In this document: in pieces, positions 46,871 through 55,934 of the stretch
Position numbering within the stretch: position 1 is the first letter of the stretch
Layout: each line of letters begins with the position of its first letter
Source of the DNA: Escherichia coli
Lineage (GTDB): Bacteria > Pseudomonadota > Gammaproteobacteria > Enterobacterales > Enterobacteriaceae
NCBI RefSeq assembly: GCF_009931435.1
Contig: NZ_CP043414.1
Reading direction: 5' to 3' (one strand)
Length of the DNA: 64,000 nucleotides
Translations under genes and position numbers: made by a program
Notes under the pieces: model-generated
Told to the model about the DNA's origin: nothing
Databases searched by the model: none
Seen by the model: the letters and a program-made list of their open reading frames with translations, nothing else

Positions 46871-46890
46871 TCTATATAGTTATTTATTCG

Positions 46891-46924
46891 CAGGAGTACC
46901 AGAGCGGTACTCCTGTTGGTTTTA
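46891..46924 (+). terminator. Intrinsic terminator of yhiD, overlapping the chuV stop
   Basis: caggagtaccagagcggtactcctg stem-loop followed by ttggtttt. Confidence 0.6.
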
Positions 46925-47692
46925 ATGATCGAGGACGATCAGTGGTGAATGGTTGGCAGGATCTTTAAGTACGGTAATATCCGCGCCGTAGAGCATTGTC
47001 AGCGCCTGCTGTGTCAATACGTCCTGCGGTTTACCATTTGCGATAACCTTTCCTTTTTGCATTAATACAACACGGTCTGCATAACGCGCGGCAAGATTTA
47101 GATCGTGCAATACGCAGCAAACATTGAACTGCCGTTCGTGAACTAGCTGGCGTAATAAACGAAACAAGTGCTGCTGATGGTGAATATCCAGCGCCGAAGT
47201 TGGTTCATCAAGAAATAACCATTTCGGTGAGGGAGTTGGTTCCCAGAGTTGCACCAGCAGGCGCGCTAATTGCACGCGCTGTTGTTCACCACCGGATAAT
47301 TGCCGATAGTCGCGGTTTGCTAACGCCTGACAGTCACATAACGCCATTATTTGTGCTGTTTCATTATCCTGATTACCAGTACGATGCGGATGCCGCCCCA
47401 TCTGGATAACTTCTTGTACGCTGAATGGAAACGCCATGTGGCTATTTTGACGCATCACGGCCCGGTGTTTCGCCAGTTCAGTAATCGACCATTCATTTAA
47501 TGGCTTATTAAACAACCGACATTCGCCGCTATCAGGTTGAAGATAGCCGGTTAACTGGCGAAGCAGCGTAGATTTTCCCGCACCATTAGGGCCGAGAATG
47601 GCAACAATTTCCCCACCGGGAAAAGTCAGCGAGACATTATCAGTCAGACGCCGCCCCTGAAGGCTATAAACCAGATTCTGGGCGCTGATCAT
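46922..47692 (-). CDS. chuV: Heme ABC transporter ATP-binding protein ChuV
   Basis: 256-aa ORF starting [11 protein letters not shown]... with Walker [10 protein letters not shown] and ABC signature LSGGEQQR; 4-nt overlap with chuU. Confidence 0.9.
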
Positions 47693-48681
47693 GTGATCCT
47701 CCGGTTGCGCAGAATCAACCACATAAAATAAGGGCCACCAAGCAGGCTGGTTAATAATCCCACGGGCATTTCTGCTGGCTGTACCAGTGTGCGGGCAAGC
47801 GTGTCTGCCATCAGCAATAAACAGGCTCCGGCGAGGGCGGAGCAAGGGATTAGCCAGCGGTGATTTGCCCCGGTAGTCATACGAATCAGATGCGGGATCA
47901 CCAGGCCAATAAAGCCGATAATGCCGCTTACCGATACGGCGGCACCAACGAGCAGTGAGCTCACTAACAATAATTGCTGGCGTTTACGCTTAACGTTCAC
48001 GCCGAGGTAGTGGGCTTCTTCATCACCGAGCTGCAGTAAATTCAGCGTTCCGGCGAGACAAGTTGTTGCAATAATGGCCGGTAGGATGAATGAACTGGCA
48101 ACCAATAACGTCGGCCATTGCGCCTGTCCAAGATTGCCCATCATCCACAATGTGAGTTGTCGTAGCTGCTGCTCATCGCCGATATAGCTCAGGATGCCGA
48201 TCGCTGCGCCGCACAGGGCATTGATGGCGATACCGGCGAGTAATAATTGCATCATGCTGCCATCGCGATGGCGCTGCGTGATGAGAAAAATGATGGTGCA
48301 GACCACTAAACTTCCGGCAATGGCAAACACCATTTGCTCATAGAGCACCAGCACCACTGGGAAGGAAAAGGGCAGCACAATAGCAACGCCAACCATTAAT
48401 GCAGAACCGCTACTGACGCCGAGTAATCCAGGGTCAGCCATTGGGTTGCGAAAAAGCCCCTGCATAATTACCCCGGCGGTTGCCAACGCTGCACCTACCA
48501 GCACCGCCAGCAAAACCCGTGGTAGACGAATATTGAGCCAGATATCGCGGTATTCCTCATCAAAAAGGGCATCAAAACTGATCTTTAACGCTCCCTGACT
48601 GGCACCGAACAGCACCAGAGCTAGCAATAATAGTGATAGCCCCATAAAGACCCTGGCGGAAAAGAGTGAATCCTTGAGCAC
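47689..48681 (-). CDS. chuU: Heme ABC transporter permease ChuU
   Basis: 330-aa FecCD-family permease ORF. Confidence 0.9.
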
Positions 48682-54797: not shown

Positions 54798-54845
54798 TCA
54801 TCTGCCCCGATATTTCGGGGCATTTATCTGGAAGGAAGAGAGACA

Positions 54846-55874
54846 ATGAACCACTACACACGCTGGCTTGAGTTAAAAGAACAAAATCCCGGAAAGTACG
54901 CGCGTGACATCGCAGGTTTAATGAATATTAGCGAAGCAGAACTGGCATTTGCGCGCGTCACGCACGATGCGTGGCGGATGTGCGGCGATATCCGTGACAT
55001 TCTGGCGGCGCTCGAAAGTGTTGGCGAGACCAAATGTATTTGTCGTAATGAATATGCAGTCCATGAGCAAGTTGGTGCGTTCACAAACCAGCATTTAAAC
55101 GGACATGCCGGATTGATCCTCAATCCGCGCGCGCTGGATTTGCGTCTGTTTCTCAATCAATGGGCCAGTGTTTTCCACATCAAAGAAAATACGACTCGTG
55201 GCGAACGCCAGAGTATTCAGTTCTTTGATCATCAGGGCGATGCATTACTAAAAGTTTATGCCACCGACAATACCGATATGGCGGCATGGAGTGAGCTTCT
55301 GGCACGGTTTATCACCGATGAGAATACGCCGCTTGAGTTAAAAGCCGTTGATGCGCCAGTTGTTCAAACGCGAGCCGATGCCAGTGTGGTCGAGCAAGAG
55401 TGGCGGGCGATGACCGACGTTCATCAGTTTTTTACGTTGCTCAAGCGCCACAACCTGACGCGCCAACAGGCGTTCAATTTGGTGGCAGATGATTTGGCCT
55501 GCAAAGTATCCAACAGTGCGTTGGCGCAAATTCTTGAATCTGCACAGCAGGATGGCAATGAAATCATGGTGTTTGTTGGCAACCGTGGCTGCGTACAGAT
55601 TTTCACTGGCGTGGTAGAAAAAGTGGTGCCAATGAAAGGTTGGCTGAATATTTTTAACCCGACGTTTACTCTTCATCTATTAGAAGAGAGCATTGCTGAA
55701 ACCTGGGTAACCCGTAAACCTGCTAGTGACGGTTATGTGACCAGTCTGGAATTGTTTGCCCATGATGGTACGCAGATAGCGCAACTTTATGGTCAACGTA
55801 CAGAAGGCGAACAGGAGCAAGCGCAATGGCGTAAGCAAATTGCTTCGCTGATACCGGAAGGCGTTACTGCATAA
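54846..55874 (+). CDS. chuS: Heme oxygenase / heme-degrading protein ChuS
   Basis: 342-aa ORF immediately downstream of chuA. Confidence 0.9.
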   Translation: MNHYTRWLELKEQNPGKYARDIAGLMNISEAELAFARVTHDAWRMCGDIRDILAALESVGETKCICRNEYAVHEQVGAFTNQHLNGHAGLILNPRALDLRLFLNQWASVFHIKENTTRGERQSIQFFDHQGDALLKVYATDNTDMAAWSELLARFITDENTPLELKAVDAPVVQTRADASVVEQEWRAMTDVHQFFTLLKRHNLTRQQAFNLVADDLACKVSNSALAQILESAQQDGNEIMVFVGNRGCVQIFTGVVEKVVPMKGWLNIFNPTFTLHLLEESIAETWVTRKPASDGYVTSLELFAHDGTQIAQLYGQRTEGEQEQAQWRKQIASLIPEGVTA

Positions 55875-55934
55875 CGTATAATTAAAGGGAGGTCTGGCTA
55901 TTTATTGCTGGGCCTCTTTATATTAATCAATCGA

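Follow-up and report, generated by a model that had tools for sequence, protein, structure and literature searches.

The shu heme transport locus of Shigella dysenteriae was reportedly described by Wyckoff et al. in 1998 (Mol Microbiol 28:1139), and the corresponding genes of pathogenic Escherichia coli are called chu. ChuA imports heme through the outer membrane with energy from TonB; ChuT, ChuU and ChuV transfer it over the periplasm and the inner membrane; aerobic heme degradation by ChuS releases the iron, and the anaerobic route of degradation runs through ChuW, ChuX and ChuY. The genes are expressed from divergent, Fur-repressed promoters in the AT-rich chuT-chuA spacer, and a FourU thermometer in the chuA 5′ UTR makes translation of that gene depend on temperature. 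The importance of the locus is known: it supplies iron in association with virulence, and E. coli phylotyping uses chuA as a marker. The shu locus is 9.1 kb long with eight genes (PMC5458455), chu makes up a 9-kb insertion that separates yhiF from yhiD in strain Sakai (PMC2241611), and the locus has been named O-island 140 (PMC10540162). Its location within the acid fitness island is also in the literature already (PMC2241611, PMC5799925, PMC10540162).

Two other kinds of iron-acquisition locus are close enough for comparison. The hemP-hemRSTUV (hmu-type) operon, which lies between aroH and selO in Citrobacter and Enterobacter, has all its genes in one direction, hemP among them, and lacks chuW, chuX and chuY. 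tRNA-linked islands, such as the High Pathogenicity Island at asnT, likewise carry strain-variable, virulence-linked cargo for iron acquisition.

The window, meaning the whole 64-kb stretch of DNA that was analysed, carries the known chu/shu heme-utilisation locus, O-island 140 in O157:H7, at its canonical yhiD-dctR site in the acid fitness island. The window shares with the locus of S. dysenteriae and pathogenic E. coli all eight genes, their order, their strands and the yhiD-yhiF/dctR site, and the length of its block (9,061 bp) corresponds to the 9.1 kb of the literature. Nucleotide identity to O157:H7 is 97.7% over 12 kb. No structural difference from the known locus was found; this cryptic clade I copy has TCTAT after the yhiD stop codon instead of TCTGT. 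The original prediction had placed eight chu genes exactly between yhiD and dctR, which the map of open reading frames and the RefSeq identities bear out: the genes occupy the gap from the yhiD stop (46870) to the dctR stop, chuVUYXWT on the minus strand and chuA and chuS on the plus strand, as follows.

46223–46870, plus strand: yhiD (MgtC/SapB family), left flank; NCBIfam PRK09977, 401.7 bits (cut-off 214), and RefSeq annotation of the identical gene
46922–47692, minus strand: chuV, heme ABC transporter ATPase; NCBIfam PRK13548, 395 bits (cut-off 261), and 100% identity to the protein of strain RMDEC465
47689–48681, minus strand: chuU, heme ABC transporter permease; 99.7% identity to annotated ShuU/ChuU
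48730–49353, minus strand: chuY, anaerobilin reductase; 99.5% identity to annotated ChuY
49353–49847, minus strand: chuX, cytosolic heme carrier (HutX); TIGR04108, 209 bits (cut-off 110)
49860–51197, minus strand: chuW (HutW), radical SAM enzyme of anaerobic heme degradation; TIGR04107, 571 bits (cut-off 400)
51217–52131, minus strand: chuT, periplasmic heme-binding protein; 99.3% identity to annotated ShuT
52815–54797, plus strand: chuA, TonB-dependent outer-membrane heme/hemoglobin receptor; TIGR01785, 587 bits (cut-off 317), and 99.8% identity to the annotated protein
54846–55874, plus strand: chuS, heme oxygenase/heme-degrading protein; 100% identity to annotated ChuS
55935–56465, minus strand: dctR (yhiF), right flank; stop codon at 55935–55937

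The eight products are 99.3–100% identical to the Chu proteins annotated in E. coli RMDEC465, where the gene order is the same. ChuV, ChuX, ChuW and ChuA score above curated NCBIfam cut-offs, and ChuU, ChuT, ChuY and ChuS are identified by being nearly identical to annotated RefSeq proteins. ChuU matches FecCD/BtuC-type permease models in NCBIfam, every one of them below its equivalog cut-off, ChuY matched no NCBIfam model, and ChuS homologues have the Pfam domains HemS and ChuX_HutX. All eight reading frames are intact, and from homology the locus would allow the cell to grow with heme or hemoglobin as its source of iron. Beyond the right flank, the reading frame at 57432–58664 gave no matches in Pfam or PADLOC.

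The arrangement differs from that of the hemP-hemRSTUV operon in that the transport genes are divergent and chuWXY are inserted among them. HemR is 85–86% identical to ChuA and HemS 80% identical to ChuS, and about 70 nt of the receptor-gene 5′ UTR are 76–81% identical to that of chuA. ChuT, ChuU and ChuV are only 29–32%, 61% and 52% identical to HemT, HemU and HemV, respectively, and the E. coli chu locus is therefore a mosaic of two modules. A search for a hemP remnant upstream of chuA found none (best tblastn E = 0.93).

The window and the shu/chu locus have the same Fur boxes and the same shuA thermometer. The regulatory elements detected in the window locus are these.

52155–52173, matched on both strands: Fur box immediately upstream of the chuT start codon, 3 mismatches to GATAATGATAATCATTATC
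52507–52525, matched on both strands: Fur box upstream of chuA, 2–3 mismatches to the consensus
52786–52817, plus strand: FourU RNA thermometer of the shuA/chuA 5′ UTR; Rfam RF02597, 60.1 bits (gathering score 58)

The four Fur consensus matches in the window (two sites on both strands) compare with 0.01 expected by chance. The box at 52155–52173 is consistent with a Fur site that has been mapped to +1 to +19 of shuT and is likewise three bases off the consensus (PMC5458455).

The chu block does not resemble the islands of the High Pathogenicity type in its mobility features: it lacks an integrase, a tRNA and direct repeats, its composition is core-like, and its divergence equals that of its flanks. 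Indeed, the absence of integrase, IS element, tRNA and direct repeats had been predicted, and the junction repeat search, ARAGORN and the list of reading frames agree with it. ARAGORN found no tRNA or tmRNA in the 64-kb window, neither integrase nor transposase was present, since the block has no reading frames of at least 80 aa other than the chu genes and frames nested in them, and no direct or inverted repeats pairing 46871–46925 with 55875–55934 were found. An ERIC or other small repeat at the window junctions was considered and rejected; BLAST with the ERIC sequence of Escherichia sp. MOD1-EC7003, which has ERIC copies at its chu locus, matched only through its non-ERIC part, at 52385–52435. 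Among the marks of a mobile or pathogenicity island, namely a mobility gene, tRNA insertion, flanking repeats and deviant composition, none is found in the chu block, and these 9,061 bp without mobility genes are not a self-mobile island.

The composition steps at both junctions, as a GC profile suggested along with the prediction revealed: GC content goes from 39.8% to 50.3% and down to 35.5%. It is the flanks that deviate, because positions 1–30000 of the window have 52.9% GC against 50.3% in the chu block. The chu coding DNA is core-like at 49–57% GC, while the neighbouring acid-resistance flanks are AT-rich (36–40%), and the 683-bp chuT-chuA intergenic region (39%) is the sole AT-rich part of the block. 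Since chu has 50% GC against 36–40% in the flanks, the idea that heme acquisition lies under the H-NS influence of its neighbourhood could concern at most the chuT-chuA promoter region.

Alignment with K-12 had been proposed for locating the breakpoints, and comparison with chu-negative alleles set the chu-positive-specific block at 46874–55934 (9,061 bp, 50.3% GC). The junctions are as tight as predicted, with a left gap of 51 bp (46871–46921) and a right gap between the chuS and dctR ends of exactly the predicted 60 bp (55875–55934). The following features lie there.

46871–46873: TCT, last bases common to the empty allele, from base-by-base extension against loci L002 and L003 and junction comparison across loci
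46890–46924, plus strand: hairpin (46890–46916) followed by TTGGTTTT, candidate intrinsic terminator of yhiD, from a terminator scan; fold energy −21.5 kcal/mol, z = −4.2
55886–55919, plus strand: predicted chuS terminator hairpin, then TTTATATT; fold energy −20 kcal/mol, z = −4.3 on the plus strand and weak on the minus strand

The yhiD stop codon is followed by TCTGT in most chu-positive genomes, and there the junction matches stop at query position 44–46. The two alleles have 3–5 nt in common at the left junction and 0 nt at the right, where shared sequence restarts exactly at the dctR stop codon. The yhiD flank itself is common to chu-positive and chu-negative alleles. The hairpin at 46890–46916 has an 11-bp stem and, together with TTGGTTTT, looks like an intrinsic terminator for yhiD. 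A yhiD terminator overlapping the chuV stop codon had been predicted. Only the last three bases of TTGGTTTT, which are the complement of the chuV stop codon, reach 46922–46924, and thus the overlap is limited to the T-tract, the hairpin ending before the stop codon. The hairpin sits in chu-specific DNA, outside the shared yhiD flank; it has the same sequence in the chu-positive loci L004 and L007. The chu-specific DNA also holds the predicted chuS terminator; L004, L007 and E. albertii have retained its stem, with changes that, examined by eye, turn G-U pairs into G-C pairs.

The original prediction had yhiD and dctR as neighbours in K-12, and they are 41 bp apart in both MG1655 and W3110. It went astray in taking the K-12 arrangement as an untouched target. 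In chu-negative genomes the 9,061-bp block is replaced by a spacer of 38–42 bp, which is absent from chu-positive alleles, and because this spacer is unrelated to chu the two forms are replacement alleles rather than an insertion and its clean target. No relation between the spacer and the ends or interior of the chu block was detected by local alignment and shuffle tests (p = 0.07–0.95 against the block ends). The K-12 spacer, read as its reverse complement, looks to the eye like the chuS terminator hairpin. A descent of the spacer from that terminator was rejected, the terminator being the best match in only 1 of 32 comparisons (four spacers, four chu blocks, both strands), with local alignment scores (17–27) no better than those of matches elsewhere. 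Shuffle tests supported mutual homology (p ≤ 0.0025) among the spacers of K-12, cryptic clade I, Escherichia sp. E1V33 and E. whittamii, and the empty allele is therefore old too; homology to the 73-bp yhiD-dctR spacer of E. fergusonii was unsupported (p = 0.17).

Among about 5,420 complete E. coli genomes, chu is at the site in 2,234–2,236 (about 41%) and the short spacer in 3,179. The chu copy of the window belongs to cryptic clade I, in which 12 of 18 complete genomes have chu and six lack it. The scan of species representatives yielded six non-coli Escherichia loci, and neither the E. coli sensu stricto representative nor any record titled E. marmotae was among its results; E. albertii and representatives of two other non-coli species have chu at this site. 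In L004, L007 and E. albertii (L008), the species labels of the former two being drawn from divergence only, all eight chu genes adjoin dctR and are 87–95% identical in nucleotide sequence to those of the window, with 84–93% for the flanking genes. Because the site is shared with E. albertii and the others and chu is as diverged as its flanks, chu predates E. coli. The insertion is thus old, as had been predicted, and the suggestion of an event specific to the lineage of the window strain is contradicted. The acid fitness islands of E. fergusonii and of a metagenomic contig (L014) both lack chu, which could be secondary loss. Addition of chu to a pre-existing AT-rich island fits these chu-less islands as well as the 50% GC inside against 36–40% outside. 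Decay is also seen: MOD1-EC7003 (L005) has kept chuA-chuS but is missing chuTWXYUV, a truncated ERIC element marking the joint of the deletion, and the E. albertii locus lacks yhiD.

Recent gain would require that the K-12 order is ancestral in E. coli and that foreign chu was inserted without scar in the ancestor of the window strain's lineage. The adjoining yhiD and dctR of K-12, the GC steps at both junctions and the chu-less islands of E. fergusonii and L014 are what such an event would leave. It is nevertheless very improbable, since any insertion of chu predates E. coli, as its presence in E. albertii and two more species with divergence equal to that of the flanks indicates, and the empty allele is no clean target, having 38–42 bp that chu-positive alleles lack. 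Phylotyping is also against it: in Clermont 2000 and 2013, groups B2, D, E and F, which have chu, are reportedly the early branches, and the chu-negative A, B1 and C are derived. The possibility that the acid fitness island and chu arrived jointly as one island, raised in the xenoGI paper, agrees with the arrangement in E. albertii, which was confirmed in the loci examined here. Joint arrival seems improbable, as chu has 50.3% GC against 36–40% in its acid-resistance neighbours, and the two most divergent acid fitness islands found (E. fergusonii and L014) are without it. Moreover, ChuA and ChuS have 80–86% identity to HemR and HemS, whose operon in Citrobacter and Enterobacter, between aroH and selO, is unlinked to acid-resistance genes.

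If chu were simply ancestral, groups A/B1/C, part of clade I, E. whittamii and E1V33 would each have lost it by a deletion of their own. Independent decay does occur, as the loss of chuTWXYUV in MOD1-EC7003 and of yhiD in E. albertii demonstrates. Yet the empty alleles of all four classes end at identical points and have mutually homologous spacers (p ≤ 0.0025) without counterpart in the chu block, and independent deletions would not have recreated the same foreign 40 bp; we regard this explanation as extremely improbable.

The flanks favour exchange between two standing alleles. Chu-negative CD09 and chu-positive O157:H7 are 99.0% identical in the left flank and 99.2% in the right, and have the same protein accessions for HdeD, HdeA, HdeB, YhiD, DctR and Slp. 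Likewise, chu-negative WL297 matches the chu-positive window at 98.9% and 99.1% in the two flanks, and the last 260 bp of yhiD are identical between them, so that no long recombination tract is visible in WL297; a long imported tract carrying the WL297-type empty allele was rejected on this ground. WL297 has a separate 116-bp patch with 11 mismatches. Identity along the chu locus swings from 94% to 99% between 500-bp intervals, varying with the partner strain, which would reflect recombination inside the locus. Since flanks group by lineage and not by chu allele, scarless exchange by homologous recombination is the probable explanation, read from haplotype patterns in a handful of loci rather than from observed events. 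In the reading preferred here, chu would have joined the acid fitness island once, before the split of E. albertii and E. coli; the two forms, with and without chu, would since then have been alleles of one locus, which may have been swapped without scar through the conserved flanks, hdeAB-yhiD on one side and dctR-slp on the other. The probability of this explanation as a whole, a canonical chu locus and old resident whose two alleles are exchanged scarlessly via the flanks, is put at about 85%.

Overall, the original prediction was right about the gene identities, the position, the tight junctions, the absence of mobility genes and scars and the old age, and had to be corrected on the clean target and the placement of the terminator. 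The finding is real but ordinary and already known, the site having been published as the shu/chu locus and O-island 140; scarless heme genes in the acid fitness island open no new question because they have been published several times. The small additions are the exact breakpoints, a replacement by homologous spacers rather than a clean deletion, a divergence of chu that keeps pace with that of its flanks among Escherichia species, and the presence of both alleles within cryptic clade I.

More tentatively, and with rather less than even odds, the two forms may be a very old polymorphism spanning species, in which both alleles are older than the separation of E. coli sensu stricto, cryptic clade I and E. 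whittamii and are kept by niche selection while recombination has erased linkage. K-12-type and clade-I-type alleles differ by about 30% in their spacers and by about 3% in their flanks, which a simple model of shared polymorphism with homogenised flanks does not predict. If the polymorphism is nonetheless of this age, each lineage would keep its own version of the 38–42 bp spacer, recombination would remove linkage as far as the indel boundary, and the contrast between spacer and flanks would be the footprint of deep coalescence. Selection would then act between heme piracy in hosts on the one hand and the cost or exposure of ChuA on the other.

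As the original prediction had held, the eight chu genes lie exactly in the interval from the yhiD end at 46870 to the dctR stop codon at 55935-55937. The locus is real and its position and identity were correctly assigned, as borne out by the ORF map and by the 99.3-100% identity of the window's Chu proteins to their annotated counterparts in strain RMDEC465.

46890-46916, hairpin resembling a terminator for yhiD, followed by TTGGTTTT (z = -4.2)
46922-47692, minus strand, chuV
47689-48681, minus strand, chuU
48730-49353, minus strand, chuY
49353-49847, minus strand, chuX
49860-51197, minus strand, chuW
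51217-52131, minus strand, chuT
52155-52173, predicted Fur box (pattern match)
52507-52525, predicted Fur box (pattern match)
52786-52817, shuA/chuA thermometer (Rfam)
52815-54797, plus strand, chuA
54846-55874, plus strand, chuS
55886-55919, hairpin resembling a chuS terminator, followed by TTTATATT (z = -4.3)

RMDEC465 is the closest match to 45300-57300 (99.7%; megablast against 5,426 complete E. coli genomes), and its RefSeq annotation gives the order hdeD, hdeA, hdeB, yhiD, heme ABC ATPase, shuU, chuY, hutX, hutW, shuT, chuA, chuS, dctR, slp. ChuV, ChuX, ChuW, ChuA and YhiD also score above curated NCBIfam cut-offs. The presence of chu at yhiD-dctR is already known as a textbook feature; the locus, for which O-island 140 is another name and whose chuA is a phylotyping marker, was reportedly described by Wyckoff et al. 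in 1998. Its occurrence at this site has been described previously (PMC2241611; PMC5799925; PMC10540162).

The full 45300-57300 stretch is present in 2,234 of the 5,426 genomes, an occupied left junction in 2,236 and a short yhiD-dctR junction in 3,179; O157:H7, ATCC 11775, UPEC 536 and ST131 are chu-positive. Nearly all short-junction genomes (3,173) carry a K-12-type spacer, which MG1655 and W3110 match at 100%, and the other six carry the type of WL297, a chu-negative genome. For the core stretch 18001-43000 (25 kb, yhjG to mdtF), identity is 98.5-98.8% with just 18 of the 5,426 genomes, and 96.7% with all others among the matches listed. Because one of these 18, 2013C-4282, is given as Escherichia cryptic clade I (PMC10100065), the window most likely belongs to that clade. 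Twelve of the 18 are chu-positive and have the same left junction as the window, and the remaining six are the WL297-type chu-negative genomes.

The chu block has a GC content of 50.3% (genes 49-57%), the core part of the window 52.9%, and the left and right flanks of chu 39.8% and 35.5%. The AT-rich, foreign-looking DNA is that of the acid fitness island, and chu resembles core DNA, which argues against both having arrived as a single block. The same contrast restricts the original prediction's idea of an H-NS-rich neighbourhood shared by chu and acid resistance: at most, composition of the H-NS type would be confined to the chu promoter region, the chuT-chuA intergenic region having 39.2% GC. 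Next to slp, a minus-strand ORF (57432-58664, 410 aa, AT-rich, 31.6% GC) lies presumably where K-12 has the yhiS pseudogene. Even against its counterpart in RMDEC465, a 99.7% match across chu, its protein shows just 62-66% identity; its DNA is 74-79% identical to all strains compared, and no Pfam or PADLOC match was found for it. The ORF resembles a hypervariable allele at the island edge.

The chuT-chuA regulatory spacer appears to be evolving much faster than the chu genes. A 500-bp stretch of it (52299-52798) is only about 85% identical in MCJCHV-1, presumably a phylogroup B2 / ST131 strain, versus 96-98% in O157:H7 and HET6, and between species the region has 78-81% identity. The Fur-box pattern gave four matches (two sites on both strands) versus 0.01 expected by chance, and the boxes and the thermometer agree with what has been published for shuT and shuA. 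A terminator-like hairpin on the plus strand (54803-54822, TGCCCCGATATTTCGGGGCA then TTTATCTGGA) lies within the 48-bp chuA-chuS gap, in agreement with the published prediction of separate transcripts for the two genes. Elsewhere, and on the minus strand like gadE, an Rfam match to the ES205 sRNA (43043-43114; 105 bits, gathering score 86) follows that gene at a distance of about 120 nt.

ChuS homologues with identities of about 80% occur commonly in Citrobacter, Enterobacter, Leclercia, Lelliottia and Kluyvera; in the two genomes inspected, they belong to an operon, hemP-hemR-hemS-hemT-hemU-hemV, that lies between aroH and selO. ChuA and ChuS share 80-86% identity with HemR and HemS of the Citrobacter/Enterobacter operon, whereas ChuT, ChuU and ChuV show only 29-32%, 61% and 52% identity to HemT, HemU and HemV, and chuWXY have no counterpart there. 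On this contrast, the Escherichia locus is a composite of a receptor-plus-oxygenase module (52815-55874) and a differently sourced module for transport and anaerobic degradation (46922-52131).

One DctR scan of a species-representative genome collection gave six loci. Two titled E. coli, at species-level divergence (L004 and L007), hold all eight chu genes between dctR and yhiD; E. albertii holds all eight without yhiD, the hdeB terminator abutting the chuV stop; Escherichia sp. MOD1-EC7003 has just chuA and chuS; and Escherichia sp. E1V33 and E. whittamii are empty. At the nucleotide level, the chu genes match those of the window at 89-93% in L004, 90-95% in L007 and 87-92% in E. albertii, and the flanking genes at these loci do so at 84-93%. 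Chu has thus diverged together with its neighbours, and its residence at the site would therefore predate the separation of E. albertii and E. coli. The partial locus of MOD1-EC7003 is an independent decay route reusing nearly the same left boundary: in place of chuTWXYUV and part of the intergenic region it has a truncated ERIC-like element, which abuts TCTGTAT after the yhiD stop, and a second, full ERIC copy lies upstream of chuA.

Chu is missing from two acid fitness islands that are more distant. That of E. fergusonii ATCC 35469, reached via a DctR homologue of 63% identity, has yhiD adjoining dctR across an unrelated 73-bp spacer. That of L014, a metagenomic contig (Logan SRR26188688) roughly equidistant from all other islands compared, lacks both yhiD and chu. 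With E. coli, which has yhiD with or without chu, and E. albertii, all four yhiD/chu combinations thus exist. In the two islands without yhiD, the hdeB terminator hairpin (GGAGCAGCAAG...CTTG(C/T)TGCTCC) runs directly up against a stop codon, that of chuV in E. albertii and that of dctR in L014.

The junctions are as tight as predicted, with 51 bp between yhiD and chuV and 60 bp between chuS and dctR. Breakpoints were set by comparing the window with two chu-negative genomes, WL297 and CD09, the latter with a K-12-type junction. Past the yhiD stop codon, TCT alone is common to the window and the chu-negative genomes (most chu-positive genomes share TCTGT, in which the window has a G-to-A change), and on the right common sequence restarts exactly at the dctR stop codon. 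The chu-positive-specific sequence is therefore 46874-55934, or 9,061 bp, in agreement with the published "9.1 kb region ... eight genes" (PMC5458455). Both junction hairpins lie inside it; the T-tract of the left one does overlap the chuV stop codon as proposed, but the hairpin belongs to chu-specific DNA. In the empty spacers, predicted folding is no stronger than in shuffled sequence.

The original prediction of an old, scarless insertion stands as to age and absence of scars: there is no tRNA gene in the entire 64-kb window, no repeat pairing the two chu junctions, and no unaccounted ORF between yhiD and dctR able to encode an integrase or transposase. It does not stand as to the K-12 arrangement being a simple pre-insertion state, since the chu-negative site holds 38-39 bp absent from the chu-positive allele (K-12-type, GTGTGGCAGCGTAGCCAGACTCACCGTAAGCCTGAAAT). 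Chu-positive and chu-negative forms are replacement alleles, and the empty site is no clean target. The spacers of K-12-type E. coli, WL297-type clade I, E1V33 and E. whittamii are mutually homologous (shuffle p <= 0.0025 for five of six pairs; WL297 versus E. whittamii, p = 0.09). They show no similarity to the chu block, whether at its ends or inside it, nor to the E. fergusonii spacer (p = 0.17). Repeated deletions of chu could also yield empty sites, but homologous spacers without likeness to the block make one origin of the empty allele much more likely. The empty allele, like the chu-positive one, is old. K-12-type and clade-I-type spacers (CD09 locus 3075-3112, WL297 locus 3075-3113) differ by about six substitutions and three indels in 41 nt. 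Their divergence is about 30%, against about 3% in the flanks; either the spacer is fast-evolving or the two alleles have a much deeper coalescence than the flanks.

Flanks group by lineage, not by allele. Chu-negative CD09 matches chu-positive O157:H7 FRIK2455 at 99.0% in the left flank and 99.2% in the right, and the two share protein accessions for HdeD, HdeA, HdeB, YhiD, DctR and Slp; the chu-positive window matches chu-negative WL297 at 98.9% and 99.1%, with no mismatch over the last 260 bp of yhiD; and flank divergence between these two lineages is about 3%. Further into WL297 yhiD, a 116-bp patch (equivalent to 46495-46610) has 11 mismatches to the window (9.5%), the gene being 99-100% identical outside it with 260 identical bases from patch to junction; the patch resembles a micro-import whose source would be a divergent Escherichia. 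Within chu, identity in 500-bp windows swings from 94% to 99% with the partner strain, probably the usual recombination mosaic. In the simplest reading, the two alleles would be swapped by homologous recombination through their conserved flanks, which would leave no scar and make mobility genes unnecessary.
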